This document shows positions 13,832 to 22,867 of a DNA stretch of 22,867 nucleotides, one piece after another. This stretch comes from Planctomycetota bacterium (GTDB taxonomy: Bacteria > Planctomycetota > UBA1135 > GCA-002686595). Positions within the stretch are counted from its first letter, which is position 1. Every line of letters starts with the position of its first letter. A program made the position numbers and the translations under genes. Where the stretch lies: positions 1-22,867 of the forward strand of contig JAJDEV010000081.1 in assembly GCA_029259605.1 (NCBI GenBank). The letters run 5' to 3'. The notes below the pieces were generated by a model, which worked only from the letters and a program-made list of their open reading frames with translations, was not told where the DNA came from and did not search any database.

Positions 13832-16318
13832 GTGCGATCGAGATCAGCCCTTTGGTTCCTGTTGTGTGCTTCGATTGCGAGCGCGGTCCCGTCCGCGCAA
13901 GTCACGAGCCCCGAAGCCCACCTTGGGCGTCCGGTCGGCGCGGACTTCGAGCTCGCGGATTGGGGCGAGGTGTCCGGCTACTACCGCGCGCTCGCCAACG
14001 ACAGTCCGCGCGTGCGCGTCGAGACGGTCGGCGCGACGACCGAGGGACGCGACTTCCTGCTGGCGACGATTTCGAGCGAAGCGAACCTCGCGCGCCTCGA
14101 GGAGATCCGCGCCGCCGCGCGCCGCATCGCCGATCCGCGCGGTATCGGTGACGACGAGCGCGAAGCGCTGCTCGAACGCGCGAAGCCGATCGTCTTCGTC
14201 TCGATCGCGATGCACTCGACCGAGACCGCGGCGCCGCAGTTCGGCATGGAGTTCGCGCACCGGCTCGCGACGTCCGACGAGGAGCCTTACCGCTCGGCGC
14301 GCGAGGAACTCGTCGTCCTGATCGCACCGTGCCTCAATCCCGACGGCCTCGACCACGTCGTCGAGTGGTATCGCGAGACGGTCGGCACGCCGTACGAAGC
14401 GGCGGGGTTGCTCAAGCTCTATCAGTTCTACGCGGGGCACGACAACAACCGCGACTGGTTCATGCTGTCGCAGTCCGAGACGCAGATCGTGACGCGGCTG
14501 CTCTACTCCGAGTGGTTCCCGCAGGTCTATTGGGACGTGCACCAGCAGGGTCGCTCCGAGGAGCGTTTCTTCGTTCCGCCGTTCCGCGACCCGCTCAACC
14601 CGAACCTCGACGCCGGAGTCATCGCCGGCATCGGCCAGCTCGGCGCGCGCGCGCTCTTCGACATGACGGGCGAGGGCTTCTCGGGCGTGTCCACCGGCGT
14701 CTCGTACGACATGTGGTGGAACGGCGGCAACCGCAACGTTCCCGTGCGCCACAACATCATCGGACTCCTGACCGAAGCCGCGTCGGTCAACATCGCGTCG
14801 CCGGTGTTCCTGCCGAAGCGCGAGCTGCGCGCGCCCGGCGGATTGAACGAGTACGGACCGTCGAACCGCTTCCCGAAGCCGTGGCCCGGCGGTTGGTGGC
14901 GCCTGCGCGACATCATCGAGTACGAGCACGCGTTCTCGCGGTCGCTCGTTTCGAGCATCGCGCGCGAGCCGCGGCTTTGGCTCGAGAACTCGCTGGATGC
15001 GGCCGAGCGCGCGATCGCCGCCGGCACGCACGATGCGCCGCGCGCGTGGATCCTCCCGAACTCGAATACGGACCGCGGCGCGACCCAGCGCCTGGCCGAG
15101 ACGCTCCTCCTCAGCGGCGTCGAGCTCTTCGTCGCGGACGCGCCGATCGACGCCGACGGACGCACGTGGCCCGCGGGCTCGATCGTCATCCGTCGTGACC
15201 AGCCCTACGGCCAGCACGTGAAGGACCTCTTCGAAGTGCAGCGCTATCCGGAAGGCGAGGCGCCGTACGACGTCGCCGGCTGGACGCTGCCGTTCCTGCT
15301 CGGTGTGCGTCGGGTCGAGGTCATGCAGTCGCTCGACGGTTCGTTCCGTCGCGTCACCACGGCGGCCGACGCGGTGGCGTCGTTCGAGAGCGGCGTCGCG
15401 GACGGGCGCGCCGACTCGCGCGACAGCGACGCGTGGGTCGACGTGTTCCGGCGCCTGGGCGCGGGTGAAGAGCTGGCGTTCGCGTTCGACGGCGACGACG
15501 CGGGCGTGTTCACGCCATCGAGCGGAACGAGTGCGGCAGAAGAATCCGACGAGGACGCGCTCCCCACGCAGGCCCAGTTCGCCGGCGTCCCGCGGATCGG
15601 CGTCTACGCGCCGTGGAGCGGGAGCATGGATGAGGGTTGGCTGCGCTTCGCGCTCGATCGCTTCGGTGTTCCGTTCCTCTCCGTGCGCAACGAGATGGTT
15701 CGCGCGGGGGATCTCGGGGATCTGGTCGACGTGCTGGTGATCGCGAGCATCCCCGGCCGCCAGCTCGACGCGGGGCGAACGGAGGGCAGCGTGCCCCCCG
15801 AGTTCGCGCGCGGGCTCGATCCCGAAGGCGCCGCGGCGATCGATGAGTTCGTTCGCACCGGCGGTCGCCTGGTCGCGATCGGCAGCTCGGCGACCTGGGC
15901 GATCGAGCTCTTCGACCTGCCGCTCGAGGACGTGACGCGCGGCGACGAGGCGGGCGAGTTCTCGTGTCCGGGCAGCGTGTTGCGCACGGTCCCCGAGACC
16001 GCGGGGCGCGGCGCGCGGCTGACCGCCGGCCTGCCCGCATCGATCCCGATCTTCTTCTCGCGGTCCGCGGCGTGGAAGCCCGCAGACGACGCGGGCGACG
16101 AGGCCGACGAGCTCGAGGTGCTCCTGCGCTACGCGCCGACGCGCGTCTTGCTGTCCGGTTGGGTGCGCGCGCCCGAGGTCATCGCCGGGGCGTCGGCGTG
16201 GATCCGCGCGCCGCATGGTGCGGGCTCGGTCGATCTCTTCGGCTTCCGGCCGCAGTATCGCGGCTGGTCCCAGGGGACGTTCCAGCTCCTCTTCCGCGCC
16301 ATCCTCTTCGGGGATTGA
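13832..16318 (+). CDS. Secreted M14-family zinc carboxypeptidase with C-terminal class-I glutamine-amidotransferase-like (ThuA/DJ-1-like fold) domain
   Basis: 828 aa. Sec signal peptide (MRSRSALWFLLCASIASAVPSA). M14 zinc-ligand/catalytic motifs in canonical order: HSTE (HxxE), NPDG, GHDNNRDW (N-R substrate-binding pair), later His (DVHQQG). C-terminal ~300 aa (RIGVYAPWSGSMDEGWLRFALDRFGVPF...DVLVIASIPG...FVRTGGRLVAIGSSATWAIELF) resembles a GATase1-like fold; this is inference from pattern, not a search. Confidence 0.8.
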   Translation: MRSRSALWFLLCASIASAVPSAQVTSPEAHLGRPVGADFELADWGEVSGYYRALANDSPRVRVETVGATTEGRDFLLATISSEANLARLEEIRAAARRIADPRGIGDDEREALLERAKPIVFVSIAMHSTETAAPQFGMEFAHRLATSDEEPYRSAREELVVLIAPCLNPDGLDHVVEWYRETVGTPYEAAGLLKLYQFYAGHDNNRDWFMLSQSETQIVTRLLYSEWFPQVYWDVHQQGRSEERFFVPPFRDPLNPNLDAGVIAGIGQLGARALFDMTGEGFSGVSTGVSYDMWWNGGNRNVPVRHNIIGLLTEAASVNIASPVFLPKRELRAPGGLNEYGPSNRFPKPWPGGWWRLRDIIEYEHAFSRSLVSSIAREPRLWLENSLDAAERAIAAGTHDAPRAWILPNSNTDRGATQRLAETLLLSGVELFVADAPIDADGRTWPAGSIVIRRDQPYGQHVKDLFEVQRYPEGEAPYDVAGWTLPFLLGVRRVEVMQSLDGSFRRVTTAADAVASFESGVADGRADSRDSDAWVDVFRRLGAGEELAFAFDGDDAGVFTPSSGTSAAEESDEDALPTQAQFAGVPRIGVYAPWSGSMDEGWLRFALDRFGVPFLSVRNEMVRAGDLGDLVDVLVIASIPGRQLDAGRTEGSVPPEFARGLDPEGAAAIDEFVRTGGRLVAIGSSATWAIELFDLPLEDVTRGDEAGEFSCPGSVLRTVPETAGRGARLTAGLPASIPIFFSRSAAWKPADDAGDEADELEVLLRYAPTRVLLSGWVRAPEVIAGASAWIRAPHGAGSVDLFGFRPQYRGWSQGTFQLLFRAILFGD

Positions 16319-16321
16319 GCG

Positions 16322-17224
16322 ATGGCAACGGGCGAGGACGACGGAGGACCGGCGGCGACGATCGAGATCGTGCGCGGCGACAACCTCGACGTCCTGCGCA
16401 CCCTCGCGGACGCGTCGTTCCAGCTCGTCTACATCGACCCGCCGTTCAACACGGGCAAGCGGCAGCGGCTCACGCGGTTGCGCACGTCGCGCGACGAGGA
16501 CGGGGACCGCGTCGGGTTCGGCGGACATCGCTACCGGTCCGAGCTCGTTTCCGACGTCGCCTATGGCGATCGGTTCGACGACTACCTCTCGTTCCTCGGA
16601 CCGCGACTCGAGGAAGCGCAGCGCGTGCTCGACGCGACCGGCAGCCTGTTCGTTCACGTCGACCCGCGCGAGTCGCACTACGTGAAGGTCTTCCTCGACG
16701 GCCTGTTCGGGCGCGACTGCTTCCAGAACGAGATCATCTGGTCGTACGACTACGGAGCGCGGTCCAAGCGGCGCTGGCCCGCCAAGCACGACACGATTCT
16801 GTGGTACGTGCGCGACCCGAAGAACTACGTCTACCGCTACGACGACATCGACCGCATTCCCTATCTCGCGCCCGGGCTGGTCGGTCGCGAGAAGGCGGCG
16901 CGCGGCAAGACGCCGACCGATGTCTGGTGGAACACGATCGTCCCGCCGAGCGGACGCGAGCGCACCGGCTATCCGACGCAGAAGCCGCTGGCGATCCTCG
17001 AACGCATCGTTTGCGTGCATTCGAACCCCGGTGACCGGGTGCTCGACTTCTTCGCGGGCAGCGGGACGACGGGGGAGGCCGCTTGGAAGCACGGGCGGTC
17101 GTGCGTCCTGGTCGACTCCCACCCGGAGGCGATCCAGACCATGGAGCGCCGGCTGGCCCCCGCGGAGCCCCGCGTGCGCGAGGTCGACCAGGCGGCGGAG
17201 ACCGGTCGCGAAACGGATCGTTGA
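16322..17224 (+). CDS. Site-specific DNA amino-methyltransferase, beta class (N6-adenine or N4-cytosine; N6_N4_Mtase family), orphan
   Basis: 300 aa. Motif IV IDPPFNTGK near the N-terminus and motif I (VLDFFAGSGTTGEAA) near the C-terminus, i.e. the IV-then-I order of beta-class MTases (CcrM/PvuII/RsrI-like); YPTQKPLAILERIV precedes motif I. Starts 3 nt after the M14 peptidase stop. No restriction endonuclease candidate anywhere in the window. Confidence 0.85.
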   Translation: MATGEDDGGPAATIEIVRGDNLDVLRTLADASFQLVYIDPPFNTGKRQRLTRLRTSRDEDGDRVGFGGHRYRSELVSDVAYGDRFDDYLSFLGPRLEEAQRVLDATGSLFVHVDPRESHYVKVFLDGLFGRDCFQNEIIWSYDYGARSKRRWPAKHDTILWYVRDPKNYVYRYDDIDRIPYLAPGLVGREKAARGKTPTDVWWNTIVPPSGRERTGYPTQKPLAILERIVCVHSNPGDRVLDFFAGSGTTGEAAWKHGRSCVLVDSHPEAIQTMERRLAPAEPRVREVDQAAETGRETDR

Positions 17225-17434
17225 ATCCGTTCGACGCGGGCCCAAGAGAGGGGCCGGAGCCCGGCGGTTGTGTGAGCGCGAGTCACGGTTTCCACGACCC
17301 CTCCTCATCGGAAACCTCCGAAGACTCATCGGCTCGCGCTTTCCTGCGCTTCGTGATGGCCTTCTTAGGGATGGAGACCGCCGGGCTCCCCCTCGCCCCC
17401 CGCGCGATCGAAGCCGTTCTCCCGGACGCAGGGG

Positions 17435-17620
17435 CTGCTAGCCCGGGTTATTCATGAGGCTTTGCCGAGATCGACGCAGATGCGCGCCAGATCAGCGCTT
17501 CGCGACCGACGCGCGTGCTGGCGACCTTGACGGGTCGTCGACCCCGGTGAGGGAGGGAAGGGCTGAGATGGCGCGTAGCTGCGTCGATCTCGGTGAAGCC
17601 TCATGAATGATCTGGGCTAG
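17435..17620 (+). repeat. ~185-bp element with ~55-bp near-perfect inverted-repeat arms (17435-17489 / 17569-17620) and a 79-nt central loop, directly upstream of HMGR
   Basis: Core arms TTATTCATGAGGCTTTGCCGAGATCGACGCAGATGCGCGCCA (17448-17489) and TGGCGCGTAGCTGCGTCGATCTCGGTGAAGCCTCATGAATGA (17569-17610) match 37/42 as reverse complements. Four of the five mismatches become G-U pairs on the + strand RNA, leaving one A-G mismatch in 42 bp. Arms extend a further ~12 nt outward (GCTAGCCCGGG / CTGGGCTAG), again with wobble-compatible differences. The element ends 12 nt before the HMGR ATG (17632). Confidence 0.8.
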
Positions 17621-17631
17621 GATGCGCCGCG

Positions 17632-18831
17632 ATGAGCGTGCCCTTGCCCCCGATTCCCCGTCGGCGCGACGACGACCACGGCCCCGACGCTGTTCGCGAA
17701 CGGATCGAGCTCTGTGAGGAGGTGGCCGGCCGACCGCTGCCCTTCCTGCGCGGCGCCACCGTTCCCTCGGCCGAGGCGCGCGGGAACGTCGAGAACCTGA
17801 TCGGCTACGCCCAGGTTCCGATCGGGATCGCCGGACCGCTGCGCGTCGACACGAGCGCCGGCATCCGTGAGGTGTTCGTCCCGATGGCGACGACGGAGGG
17901 CGCGATGATCGCCTCGTACTCGCGCGGGATGAAGGCGCTCCGCGGCGCGAGCGCGCGCGCGCGCGTCCTTTCCGAGTCCCTGTCACAGCATCCCGTGCTG
18001 CTCTACGCGAACGCGGAGACGTGCGCGCGCGCCGCGGAGATCGCGCGCGAACAGGTGCCGCGGATGGAAGAGTTGACGCGCTCGATCACGACCCACGGTC
18101 GGTTGGTCGGCGTGAAGCCCGAACCGATCGGCCGCCGGCTCGTCCTGTGCCTCTCGTTCTCCACCGGCGACGCGATCGGGATCAACATGGCGGCGCACGC
18201 GGCCGAGCTGTGCTCCGCTCACCTCGCCGAATGCACGGGCGCGACCGATCGCTATGTGCACGGCGAGGACGTGGAGAAGCGTGCGAACACGCGCGCGTCG
18301 ATCGAGGGACGCGGGCGCACGGTCGTGTGCGACGCGACGATCCCGCGCGACGAGCTCGAGCGCGTCCTGCGCGTGACCCCCGAACAACTCGTCGCGATCC
18401 ACCGCACCTACAGCTTCGGCTTCGCGCGCCTGGGGACCGAGAACCAGCTCGTTCAATCCGCGAACGGGCTCGCGGGCGTGTTCGTCGCGTGCGGGCAGGA
18501 CGTCGCGTACGTCACCGAATCGGCGACGGGCGCGCTCGACTTCGAGGTCACTCCGAACGGAGACTGCTACGCGTCCGCGTACTTGCCGTCGCTGCTTGTC
18601 GGCACGGTGGGGGGAGGAAGCGCGCAAGGAACCGCGGCCGAGTGCCTCGCGTTGCTCGGCGTCGCCGGGACCGGCGGCGCCAACGTGTTCGCCGAGTTGA
18701 TCGGCGCGACCGTGCTCGCCGGTGACCTCTCGCTGCTCGCTTCGTTCTGCACGCACGAGTTCATCGCTGCGCACGAGCGTCTCGGACGCAACCGGCCGTC
18801 GACCGCTGCGCGGGGAGGCGACGCGACGTGA
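17632..18831 (+). CDS. Hydroxymethylglutaryl-CoA reductase, class I (NADPH-dependent, catalytic domain only, no membrane anchor)
   Basis: 399 aa. Class I signature blocks: ENLIGYAQVPIGIAGPL (human ENVIGYMPIPVGVAGPL), TGDAIGINM (DAMGMNM) and VGTVGGGS...ECLALLGV (GTVGGGT...ACLQMLGV). No N-terminal sterol-sensing/membrane domain. Confidence 0.9.
   Translation: MSVPLPPIPRRRDDDHGPDAVRERIELCEEVAGRPLPFLRGATVPSAEARGNVENLIGYAQVPIGIAGPLRVDTSAGIREVFVPMATTEGAMIASYSRGMKALRGASARARVLSESLSQHPVLLYANAETCARAAEIAREQVPRMEELTRSITTHGRLVGVKPEPIGRRLVLCLSFSTGDAIGINMAAHAAELCSAHLAECTGATDRYVHGEDVEKRANTRASIEGRGRTVVCDATIPRDELERVLRVTPEQLVAIHRTYSFGFARLGTENQLVQSANGLAGVFVACGQDVAYVTESATGALDFEVTPNGDCYASAYLPSLLVGTVGGGSAQGTAAECLALLGVAGTGGANVFAELIGATVLAGDLSLLASFCTHEFIAAHERLGRNRPSTAARGGDAT
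18813..18819 (+). promoter_or_regulatory. Shine-Dalgarno (GGGGAGG) inside the HMGR 3' end for the downstream coupled gene
   Basis: GGGGAGG 8 nt upstream of GTG 18828. HMGR stop TGA (18829-18831) overlaps that GTG (GTGA). Confidence 0.5.
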
Positions 18832-19826: not shown

Positions 19827-21938
19827 ATGTCGTCCGTCGTCAAAGCCCAACCGTCCGCCGACGCGAGCAACTTCGCCAAGCAACTCGTCAAGCGACGCAA
19901 CATCGGCATCATGGCCCACATCGATGCCGGCAAGACGACCGTCACCGAGCGGATCCTGTTCCTGTCGAGCAAGATCCACAAGACGGGTGAGGTTCACGAT
20001 GGCAAGGCCACGATGGACTTCCTCGAGGAAGAGCAGAAGCGCGGCATCACGATTCAATCGGCGGCGACGAGCGTTGAGTGGAAGGACCACTCGATCAACA
20101 TCATCGACACGCCCGGCCACGTCGACTTCACGGCCGAGGTCGAGCGTTCGCTGCGCGTCCTCGACGGTGCGGTCGCGGTGTTCGATGCGGTGCAGGGCGT
20201 CGAGGCGCAGTCGGAAACGGTCTGGCGCCAGGCGAACCGCTACGGCGTGCCGCGCATCTGCATGATCAACAAGATGGATCGCGTCGGCGCGGACTACTAC
20301 CGCGCGATCCAGACGATCACGGACCGCTTGAACGCGCGTCCGATCACGCTGCAGATGCCGGTCGGTCAAGAGAAGGACTTCAACGGCGTGATCGATCTCG
20401 TCGCGATGAAGATGTTCGAGTTCAACGAGGAGGACACGGGCAAGGCGTTCAACGAAGTGCCGATCCCGGACTCGTTGCGCGACGAAGCGGACTTGCATCG
20501 CCACGACCTGTGCGAGATCGCGGCCGAGTTCGACGAGGCGCTGCTCGACCTCTTCGTCGACGACCAGCCGATCCCCGAGGAGATGCTCAAGGCGGCGATC
20601 CGCAAGGGCACGCTCGGCATGGAAGTCACGCCGATCTTCTGCGGCTCCGCGCTCAAGGACAAGGGCATCCGCTTCCTCATGGACGCGGTGATCGACTATC
20701 TGCCGAGCCCGCTCGACATCCCGCCGGTCGAGGGCATCGACCCGAAGACGGACGGGCCCGCGACGCGCGCGGCCGATCCGAGCGAGCCGATGTCGATGAT
20801 GGCGTTCAAGACGGTCGCCGAGATCACGGGCGACCTGACGTTCGTTCGCGTCTACTCCGGCATCCTCAAGAAGGGCGTGCGCGTCCTGAACCCGCGCACC
20901 CGTAAGCACGAACGCATCGGGCGTTTGGTCCGTATTCACGCCAACAAGCGCGAGTCGGTCGACGAGGTGGGCGCGGGCGACATCGCCGCGGTGCTCGGCC
21001 TCAAGAACACGGCGACCGGCGACACGCTCTGCGACGAGAACGCGCCGATCCTGCTCAGCGAGATCCAGTTCCCGGACTCCGTCATCTCGATGTCGATCGA
21101 GCCGAAGTCGGGTCAGGACCGCGACAAGCTGACCGAGGTGATCTCGCGCATGATGCGTGAGGACCCGACGTTCCGCGCGCAGACGAACGAAGAGACCGGC
21201 GACCTGGTCATCTCGGGCATGGGCGAGCTGCACCTCGAAGTCACGGTCAACCGCATCGTCAACGAGTTCAAGTGCGAGGTGACCACGGGCCGCCCGAAGG
21301 TCGCGTACAAGCAGACGCTGCGGAAGACGAAGGAAGTCGAGACGCGCTACGTGCGCCAGTCCGGCGGCCGCGGTCAGTTCGCCGTCATCTACGTCCGCTA
21401 CGAAGTCGGCGAGCCGGAGGACGGCGTCTACGAGTTCGAATCGGCGATCAAGGGCGGCAACGTCCCGCGCGAATACATCGCCCCGGTCGGCGACGGCATC
21501 CGCGAAGGCGTGCTCGGCGGCGGCCCCGCGGGCTACCCGTTCGTCAACGTGCGCGCGGTCCTGTACGACGGCAAGGCGCACGACGTCGACTCGAGCGAGA
21601 TGGCGTTCCGCGCGGCGGGCGTCCAGTCGTTCCGCGAAGCCTGCGACGGCAACTCGGTCCTGCTCGAGCCGATCATGAAGATCGAAGTCCGCACGCCCGA
21701 GGAGTTCCTCGGAAGCGTCGTCGGCGACCTCAACTCGCGTCGCGGCGAGGTCTCCGAAGTCGAGGCCCTCGACGACCTCCGGATCGTCCGCGGCCTCGTG
21801 CCGATCTCGGAGATGTTCGCCTACACGTCCGCCCTGCGCGGCGCGACCCAGGGCCGCGGCTCGTTCGCCATGGAACTGCAGGAATACCGCCAAGTGCCGA
21901 ACTCCGTCGCGACGAAGGTGCTGGCCGGCGACGTCTAG
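19827..21938 (+). CDS. fusA: Translation elongation factor G family GTPase (EF-G paralog, likely EF-G2-like rather than the str-operon fusA)
   Basis: 703 aa from ATG 19827; the upstream part of the track ORF is Arg/Pro-rich and I exclude it. G1 [10 protein letters not shown]3 DTPGHVDF, G4 NKMD; EF-G domain IV/V blocks ([10 protein letters not shown]..., [27 protein letters not shown]). Several near-universal EF-G positions are substituted ([25 protein letters not shown] versus canonical [22 protein letters not shown].FW). No rpsL/rpsG/tuf neighbours. Confidence 0.9.
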
Positions 21939-21974
21939 GTAGGCGTCGGGCGGGCGAGGGTTCGCCGGTTCGGT

Positions 21975-22867
21975 CGAGTGTCGGGGGCAGGGAGTGCTGA
22001 CGTTCCTGTGAGCGCGAGGCGCCGGGTGGTTCGGTTGCGCGAATCGAATCGCGGAGGGAAGTTCCGAACGTCGTCCTTCGCTCCGGTGGAGGTCTCGGGG
22101 ACGGGGAGTTGTGGACGTTCGTTGGACCGTGACGGTGCGGGTGGGGTGGAAGTCCGAGGGACGGGAAGTCGTGCACGTCCGTCGGATCGTGACGGAGCAG
22201 GTGTTTCCGGGGATCGAATCGCCCTTGGAGACTCCGAACGTGTTCCTCTCCTCCGTTGGATCTCTCAGGGACGGGGAGTCGTGGACGTTCGTTATCGATT
22301 CACGCGCAGCGCTTCTCGCTGCTGCGGCACGGGCTCGCTTCGCTCGCGTGCCGGGGGGGGCACTGGAGTCGCGGGGAGTTGTGGGCGATCCCTACCGATT
22401 CGGGGCAACGGACCAGGCGAAGACGCGGCAGCGGTTGCGGTCTTCGGATCGACCGATGCCGATGAGACGTTCGGGGACTTGTCCGTTGGATCTCTCCGGG
22501 ACGGGGACTTGTTGACGTTCGTTATCGATTCACGCGCAGCGCTTCGCGCTGCTGCGGCACAGGCTCGCTTCGCTCGCGTGCCGCGGTTCGCAACGGAACA
22601 GGGGTTTGCACGGCAGCCGCGACGGCTCCGGAACGGCCGATGAGGGGTTCGGGGAGTTGTTGACGCTCGTTCGATCCTGACGGTCTGGGTGGTTCCGAGA
22701 AGTGACTCGCTCTTGGGGGTTCCGAACGTGTTCCTCTCCGCCGTTGGGTGTCTCAGGGACGGGGAGTTGTTGACGTTCGTTATCGATTCACGCGCAGCGC
22801 TTCGCGCTGCTGCGGCACAGGCTCGCTTCGCTCGCGTGCCGCGGGTCGCAACGGCCCAGGGGTTTAC
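21975..22867 (+). repeat. Mosaic tandem repeat array (non-coding), at least 8 copies of a ~26-nt core with two alternating flanking modules; ~240-bp higher-order period; continues beyond the window end
   Basis: Core GGGACGGGGAGTTGT(T/G)GACGTTCGTT at 22097-22123, 22156-22185, 22268-22293, 22498-22523, 22756-22781. Degenerate copies at ~21983-22010, 22371-22395, 22644-22672. Module Y2 (ATCGATTCACGCGCAGCGCTTCGCGCTGCTGCGGCACAGGCTCGCTTCGCTCGCGTGCCGCGG) follows the core at 22294-22355, 22524-22585 and 22782-22843, nearly identical each time. Module Y1 (CGATCCTGACGG...GGGTGG...) follows the other copies. An upstream segment (GAATCGAATCGC...TCCGAACGT.GT.C.TC) is also repeated at 22041-22080, 22212-22247 and 22721-22740. 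Confidence 0.85.

Follow-up and report, generated by a model that had tools for sequence, protein, structure and literature searches.

The window analysed here is the whole of one contig (22,867 bp) of a Planctomycetota MAG, and its final ~930 bases are taken up by a repeat array that follows an EF-G gene on the + strand and is cut on its right side, inside a unit, by the end of the contig. Fourteen genes lie 5' of the array: they encode an H+-pyrophosphatase (H+-PPase), a VTT/DedA protein, an SPFH protein, a MauE-like protein, an AMP-binding enzyme, an HlyD/AcrB efflux pair, TerC, an M14 peptidase, an N6/N4 DNA methylase, HMG-CoA reductase, EF-G and two proteins without a Pfam family. One of these proteins without a family match has 276 amino acids and is listed between HMG-CoA reductase and EF-G. 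The G+C content of the contig ranges from 62 to 76% (in 500-nt windows) and the real genes have GC3 values of 0.83-0.93.

The upstream neighbour of the array is an EF-G gene of the canonical fusA type (19827-21938, + strand) with a TAG stop codon at 21936-21938. Its product has all EF-G Pfam domains and matches the equivalog TIGR00484 with 931.8 bits (cut-off: 659.4); the closest EF-G sequences, with 70-81% identity, are from Planctomycetota MAGs, while among named species Engelhardtia mirabilis comes closest (71%). The initial annotation of this DNA had placed the stop codon at the same coordinates and had the array running off the contig edge, and both statements agree with our data. It had also called the gene an EF-G paralog; as the protein passes the canonical equivalog, nothing in the window justifies this label, and the gene order is the one found for the EF-G genes of relatives. 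Between the stop codon and the first repeat remnant lies a short, unique leader (21939-21983, + strand). Small hairpins span the stop codon: the region 21925-21990 folds with -29 kcal/mol (z -1.66). A search of the leader for a T-run terminator found none.

The array is built around a core of 26 nucleotides, GGGACGGGGAGTTGTTGACGTTCGTT, which has five copies with up to three mismatches, starting at 22098, 22268, 22498, 22646 and 22756; in 100 shuffled sequences, not a single copy was found at this threshold. Two weaker copies at 22158 (6 mismatches) and 22368 (8 mismatches) bring the total to seven, all on the + strand, and two core remnants can be read from the sequence at ~21984 and ~22471, the former being recovered by the alignment as well. 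This is in good agreement with the at least eight cores, five of them near-perfect, that had been initially noticed. The core has no dyad symmetry; it prolongs to ~38 nucleotides, with weaker conservation in the additional part. There is no copy of it elsewhere in the 22,867-bp window on either strand, including the other ~1.5 kb of intergenic DNA. Successive cores start at distances of 60, 110, 100, 130, 148 and 110 nucleotides; spacings of 59, 112, 230 and 258 nucleotides had been annotated, and these are correct for distances between the better copies but not for successive starts, which are 60-148 nucleotides apart.

The sequences between the cores are repeated too: they belong to recurring families (D1-D4) and are of two types that alternate with the core, segment A of ~84 nucleotides and segment B of 74-122 nucleotides. 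Every copy of the core and of the modules has the same orientation (+). A repeat family of 201 nucleotides at 22162, 22392 and 22650 defines a higher-order period of 230/258 nucleotides, consistent with the ~240-bp higher-order repeat that had been described, and a second family of 89 nucleotides has four copies. Pairs of B copies have 6-8 mismatches in 95-126 nucleotides, and pairs of A copies have 14-22 mismatches in 89 nucleotides.

When each core is taken as the start of a unit, eight units (u0-u7, all on the + strand) can be read from the alignment. The unit next to EF-G, u0 (21984-22097), is A-type and the most degenerate of all: its core (GGGGCAGGGAGT-GCTGACGTTCCTG) has an indel and is followed by an A segment, with a copy of the D2 family at 22035-22123. 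It is followed by u1 (22098-22157), a truncated A-type unit of 60 nucleotides with one mismatch in the core (TRF detects a period of 60 at 22085-22203), and by u2 (22158-22267), an A-type unit with six core mismatches and a D2 copy at 22205-22293 that is 78% identical to the reference copy. The first B-type unit, u3 (22268-22367), consists of the core and a block of two hairpins (22306-22322, with a stem of 6 bp, and 22325-22353) and differs from u5 by six mismatches in 95 nucleotides. u4 (22368-22497) is a hybrid in which a degenerate core (8 mismatches) is followed by a B-tail, the partial core at ~22471 and an A-tail, with sequences of the D3 and D4 families. u5 (22498-22645) is a full B-type unit with core, hairpins (22536-22552 and 22554-22584) and B-tail, and u6 (22646-22755) is again A-type, with three mismatches in the core and 84% identity to 22162-22362. 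The last unit, u7 (22756-22867), is B-type with a perfect core and is the one cut by the contig end; 22740-22865 differs from 22482-22607 by eight mismatches in 126 nucleotides.

Two hairpins of the B unit (Y2), GCAGCGC-TTC-GCGCTGC and GCGGCAC-N17-GTGCCGC, are perfect in copies 2 (22536-22552, 22554-22584) and 3 (22794-22810, 22812-22842). Both had been recognised before, and the 6-bp stem in copy 1 is also present as annotated; however, the change in this copy is a single G-to-T exchange (GCAGCGCTTCtCGCTGC) and not a 2-nt change from CG to TC. There are six perfect hairpins with a stem of at least 7 bp in the array, in comparison to 1.6 in shuffled sequences. When the repeated copies are collapsed, three distinct hairpin types are left in 0.93 kb, compared with 3.5 per kb in the window outside the array: the hairpin density of the array is at background.

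An additional, imperfect hairpin (H1; 22235-22291, + strand) was found with RNAalifold: the end of the A segment (CGAACGT..CTCC.CCGT) forms the 5' arm and pairs with the core (ACGGGGAG..ACGTTCG), which forms the 3' arm. H1 recurs at 22065-22121 and 22723-22779. Its consensus structure has 18 pairs, one of which is compensatory, in four copies. Folds of single copies on the + strand have z values from -0.7 to -2.9 and modestly beat shuffled sequences in two copies (-2.9 and -1.4); the energies are -24 to -26 kcal/mol for the + strand and -10 to -21 kcal/mol for the - strand. Whole units do not fold better than shuffled sequences on the + strand (z +1.3, +0.7 and +0.4), and the fold of the whole array has a z value of -0.13 on the + strand and of -2.55 on the - strand.

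The array is non-coding. Its G+C content by codon phase is 0.71/0.63/0.63, in comparison to 0.64/0.40/0.93 for EF-G, and the GC3 signal of the real genes is absent from every frame of the array. Between copies, mismatches fall in all three codon phases (9, 9 and 15 for the longest pair) with no codon periodicity, and the lengths and spacings of the units are mostly not divisible by three. No Pfam match at E ≤0.001 was returned for the + strand ORF of 221 amino acids, for the whole open frame of the + strand or for the open - strand frame, which continues past the contig edge. A search of the concatenated six-frame translation against 5.8 billion protein clusters returned no match, but this search is insensitive, as the contig's own ORFs were not returned either. 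A reading as repeat protein is thus ruled out by the G+C phases, the non-periodic mismatches and the absence of Pfam matches. The low third-position G+C for which the ORFs in this region had been dismissed as non-coding is confirmed by the comparison with EF-G, and the description of the region as a genuine, non-coding mosaic tandem array holds.

The + strand of the array is rich in G and T (GC skew +0.19, AT skew -0.26), more so than all other intergenic regions of the window that are longer than 200 nucleotides. This strand asymmetry fits transcription in + sense.

To see what follows EF-G in related genomes, we compared ten loci with seven distinct EF-G proteins of 75-81% identity. In all ten, the same gene order runs from EF-G into a conserved gene for a protein of 326-332 amino acids that begins with MTRTARRRWSREF; the longer loci have the order methylase, HMG-CoA reductase, a protein of ~270 amino acids, EF-G, the 326-332-aa protein, DJ-1/PfpI and Tex. 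The spacer between EF-G and the next gene is 53-266 nucleotides long in nine of the ten loci: mostly it has 53-73 nucleotides, and the one spacer of 266 nucleotides contains a plain terminator hairpin. The remaining locus has a sulfatase gene inserted 3' of EF-G, indicating that the junction after EF-G is a place where changes occur. The array is found in none of the ten loci, and there is no comparable tandem repeat after EF-G in any of them. The gene for the 332-aa neighbour is not hidden within the array or elsewhere in the window (tblastn). It had been suggested that a dedicated partner gene of the array lies past the contig edge; synteny instead makes it most likely that the next gene is the ordinary, conserved 332-aa neighbour.

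The array has no similarity to the 13 loci retrieved for comparison and none to the rest of the window, and an origin from flanking sequence or from sequence of the relatives is thus ruled out. A degenerate pattern of the core (~40 bits) had two unrelated single matches, in a Chloroflexota and an Accumulibacter MAG, among 185,579 species genomes, a collection from which the source contig itself was not returned. In 241 million metagenome records it had one match, to the same Accumulibacter sequence. Viral contigs had no match to the core or to the hairpin block, and blastn against plasmids and phages found no match. Chance single matches aside, the array thus appears private to its lineage in the public collections scanned.

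Several known classes of repeats and sites can be rejected. Like a CRISPR, the array has a direct repeat of ~26-38 nucleotides that recurs on one strand, but the spacing is irregular (60-148 nucleotides), the segments between the repeats are themselves repeated (D1-D4), the repeats are degenerate and there is no Cas domain in the 14 genes and 22 kb upstream. An integron attC array is excluded by the absence of a coding signal between the repeats and by the arm ends TCCGAAC and GTTCGTT, which are off the RYYYAAC...GTTRRRY consensus; the window has no integrase gene. The units do not fit MITEs, which are bounded by terminal inverted repeats and target-site duplications: they are arranged head to tail and there is no inverted pair of at least 14 nucleotides within 21900-22867. 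They also do not fit classic REP/BIME elements: the hairpins are flanked by CACGC/T and T/GG, not by GTAG or CGTC, and all copies are on the + strand. No transposase gene was found in the window. An oriC, iteron or parS region was discarded because there is no DnaA box or parS, no AT-rich stretch (G+C 0.66) and no reversal of the cumulative GC skew. The misfit with CRISPR, attC, iterons and simple REP that the initial annotation had pointed out is therefore real, each of these classes failing on its own defining features. A sponge of the CsrB/RsmZ type was rejected since GGA is not significantly enriched (32, in comparison to 26.1 ± 3.4 in shuffled sequences) and AGGA is absent, and an array of G-quadruplexes because only two G4-type sites are present, even if loops of up to 12 nucleotides are allowed. 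Ends of Tn7-like elements or arm sites of recombinases do not fit the scale of more than 900 nucleotides, nor the fact that the segments between the sites are themselves repeated. Sigma-54 and ECF promoters were judged by eye not to fit the spacing. Of the features of an intergenic direct-repeat minisatellite, which also include several loci per genome and a copy number that differs between strains, the array has the direct repeats, the recurring sequence between the repeats, the lack of a coding function and a position that is intergenic by synteny.

Among known systems, the architecture of the array is closest to the STAR elements of Staphylococcus aureus, in which short direct repeats take turns with sequences that recur; these elements are intergenic and have no known function (PMC3532100). 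Shared features are the short, GC-rich direct core, the recurring spacers, the intergenic position, the restriction to a species or lineage and the local expansion and contraction (PMC3532100). The STAR core has 14 nucleotides and spacers of ~40 nucleotides or more, whereas here the core has 26 nucleotides and the segments have 34-122 nucleotides and are of two types (PMC3532100). STAR elements are found at many loci per genome while only one locus is known here, and there is no sequence similarity between the two. The MIRUs of mycobacteria have homogeneous units of 40-100 nucleotides and are present at ~40 loci, in contrast to the mosaic units of 60-148 nucleotides and the higher-order period of 230-258 nucleotides of this array. 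MIRUs, which are intergenic minisatellites, are believed to be transcribed as parts of operons, and the array resembles them in having direct tandem repeats in a spacer between co-oriented genes of a high-GC genome, with presumed co-transcription and slippage (PMC3635867).

The enterobacterial REP/BIME elements resemble the array in that a few hairpin-containing modules form a mosaic after the stop codon of a gene. REPs are palindromic units of 20-40 bp tagged by an unpaired GTAG or CGTC (PMC3733652) and alternate in orientation within a BIME cluster (PMC2817692); BIMEs number over 100 in a genome and are linked to RAYT transposases (PMC2817692, PMC3733652). The units of the array, in contrast, are direct and without tag, with no dispersal seen within the contig and no transposase gene in the window. 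Between tandem genes, the REP325 cluster terminates and stabilises the transcript as a 3' UTR element, and in such a setting repeats with hairpins reduce read-through and protect the message that lies upstream of them (bioRxiv 10.64898/2026.03.23.713779).

The reading that we favour, with somewhat more confidence than doubt, is that the window ends in the degenerate left edge of a higher-order tandem repeat that is non-coding and private to the lineage, an intergenic bacterial minisatellite of the STAR/MIRU/BIME kind. It would sit in the spacer between EF-G and the gene for the 332-aa protein, which is short in close relatives, so that an insertion is suggested by the comparison with these. 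The array may have grown locally, with the cores as sites of unequal recombination or replication slippage: the A units, now 75-84% identical, would have been duplicated earlier, and the B+A block of 230-258 nucleotides later, as its B parts are still 93-94% identical. Such local amplification by recombination or slippage would explain why all units are direct, why there is a higher-order period, why the identities are graded and why the unit at the edge is decayed. The near-identical inner copies are probably the reason why short-read assembly stopped here. As the array is co-oriented with both genes that flank the spacer in relatives and its sense strand is rich in G and T, it is probably transcribed from EF-G, as 3' UTR or intercistronic spacer. 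By analogy with REP/BIME and MIRU, the GC-rich hairpins might at most act as a barrier to decay or attenuate read-through. Nothing points to a dedicated RNA gene or to a protein-binding function, and the region looks unlike a novel RNA or a defence system.

The main rival is that the region is a nested hot spot within a dispersed family of REP/BIME-, BOX- or MITE-like elements and that the contig ends because the sequence recurs elsewhere in the genome. In its modular mosaic and in the imperfect palindrome H1, the region resembles BIME or BOX elements, the contig end falls within a repeat unit and there is a MITE-like element on the same contig, at 17427-17631. Still, we consider a dispersed family unlikely, given that the units are all direct with a higher-order period, that no terminal inverted repeats were detected in the array, that the GTAG/CGTC tag defining most REP families (PMC3733652) is missing, and that copies are absent both from the other ~1.5 kb of intergenic DNA of the contig and, beyond chance single matches, from the other genomes and metagenomes scanned. 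An assembly artefact, i.e. a looped or chimeric path of the graph through a repeat at the contig end, is the least probable of the explanations and in our view can hardly be correct: it would account for the position of the array right where a MAG contig ends and for the stretch of ~77 nucleotides that the last two B units have exactly in common, but copies that differ by 6-25% and by indels are unlike graph loops, and the units proximal to EF-G are unique, degenerate versions.

Two further explanations assign a function to the units. The array could consist of tandem small RNA genes or of cis-acting structured RNA cassettes, with one hairpin transcript per unit, similar to the NsiR1 array of Nostoc, a system of heterocystous cyanobacteria. 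Ionescu and colleagues are said to have reported in 2010 that every repeat of NsiR1 carries a promoter and a terminator and produces an RNA of ~60 nucleotides. The likeness lies in tandem direct repeats at an intergenic position (Ionescu et al. 2010, cited in PMC4030482). The conserved hairpins of the B units, the co-orientation of the units, the better fold of H1 on the + strand and the G+U-rich sense strand, which permits G-U pairs, would agree with such an RNA array. In contrast to NsiR1, a scan of the array for these consensus types detected no sigma-70-like promoter and no intrinsic terminator. Rfam 15 covariance models give no hit in the array at E values up to 1, and none in the window at gathering score; there is also no tRNA or tmRNA. 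The folds of the units, and that of the whole array on the + strand, are like those of shuffled sequences, the hairpin density is that of the background, a single compensatory pair is seen in four copies of H1 and the array is conserved in no relative examined. The tandem small structured RNAs that had been proposed for this locus are therefore very unlikely. The second proposal, regulator-binding cassettes, is part of a wider explanation, in which the cores would be bound by a nucleoid protein, a regulator or a centromere-like system, or form a methylation-sensitive cluster of GANTC sites. The core is indeed the best-conserved part of the array and recurs at least seven times. GANTC has a density of 11.8 per kb in comparison to 3.1 per kb elsewhere, a ~4-fold excess that is inflated by the repeated copies, and the gene for an N6/N4 DNA methylase lies 4.7 kb upstream of the array. 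But the core lacks dyad symmetry, the spacing is irregular and, when tested against known motifs only, the array has no DnaA box (TTRTCCACA with up to one mismatch), no parS (up to three mismatches) and no significant enrichment of GGA. Moreover, most of the additional GANTC sites go back to a single motif that was copied with the unit, the methylase scores far under the cut-off for CcrM (84.6 versus 830), and its gene is conserved in relatives, which keep it without having the array. We regard binding cassettes as very unlikely, too.

A bolder version takes up these functions: the array would be a functional, lineage-specific element, either a battery of hairpin RNAs or of GANTC-rich binding sites, transcribed off the highly expressed EF-G gene, with a core that is read by a protein or nuclease encoded past the contig edge. 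We judge this to be quite improbable. As a minisatellite, the preferred reading, the array is one more private intergenic repeat among the many that are known in bacteria. It marks a probable assembly break, which explains where the contig ends, and it might serve as a variable-number marker with which to distinguish strains of this uncultured lineage of planctomycetes; the array would gain interest only with unit-length RNAs or with a protein that reads the core. As a separate observation, the MITE-like element further upstream on the contig is palindromic, indicating that this genome carries small repeat elements.

The EF-G gene that precedes the array (window positions 19827-21938) encodes a canonical EF-G as judged by TIGR00484 (931.8 vs. 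659.4) and has no ribosomal-protein operon around it. Its surroundings follow an order that is common to related Planctomycetota MAGs: methylase, HMG-CoA reductase, hypothetical protein, EF-G, 332-aa hypothetical protein, DJ-1/PfpI and Tex. The junction at the 3' end of EF-G, where the array is found, has changed repeatedly in this lineage, because in one relative (L012), whose EF-G is 79% identical to the EF-G of the window, an inserted sulfatase gene on the opposite strand separates EF-G from the conserved 326-aa gene (L012 4433-5803). In one further relative (L009) the spacer 3' of EF-G measures 266 nt (L009 3633-3897), and in it a T-run comes after a clear hairpin (GAGACGCGGAGCCG...CGGCTCCGCGTC GTTCTTTT); a terminator of this hairpin and T-run type is absent 3' of EF-G in the window.

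The array (21939-22867) has a GANTC density of 11.8 sites per kb compared to 3.1 per kb in the remaining contig, an excess that is inflated by the repeated copies of the unit. A conserved N6/N4 DNA methylase gene (16322-17224) lies 4.7 kb upstream of the array, and its product resembles CcrM only weakly (84.6 bits, with the cut-off at 830). In relatives, two extra genes are present between the M14 peptidase and this methylase (L001 3617-4683; L004 6239-7296): one encodes a protein of about 195-200 aa, with a faint match to MORN_2 in L001 only, and the other a dCMP-deaminase. Both genes are missing from the window, as the stop codon of the M14 peptidase is separated from the methylase start by only 3 nt (16318-16322).

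A near-perfect hairpin of 205 nt (17427-17631) takes up the whole spacer that separates the methylase gene from the HMG-CoA reductase gene. It starts with CTAGCCCGGGTTATTCATGAGG..., finishes with ...CCTCATGAATGATCTGGGCTAG and abuts at its 3' end the ATG of HMG-CoA reductase (17632). The arms are 75 nt long, 80% complementary and separated by 55 nt, and the predicted RNA fold (-156 kcal/mol, z = -12.6) makes this element far more structured than the array downstream of EF-G. None of the 13 loci fetched from relatives contains it. Judged by its ends, the hairpin looks like a MITE with terminal inverted repeats, perhaps with a TA duplication.

Within the coding region of HMG-CoA reductase there is also a (CG)n run (17941-17965; 13 copies according to TRF), which belongs to a 29-nt imperfect inverted repeat (region 17938-18039) with its partner arm at 18011-18039.
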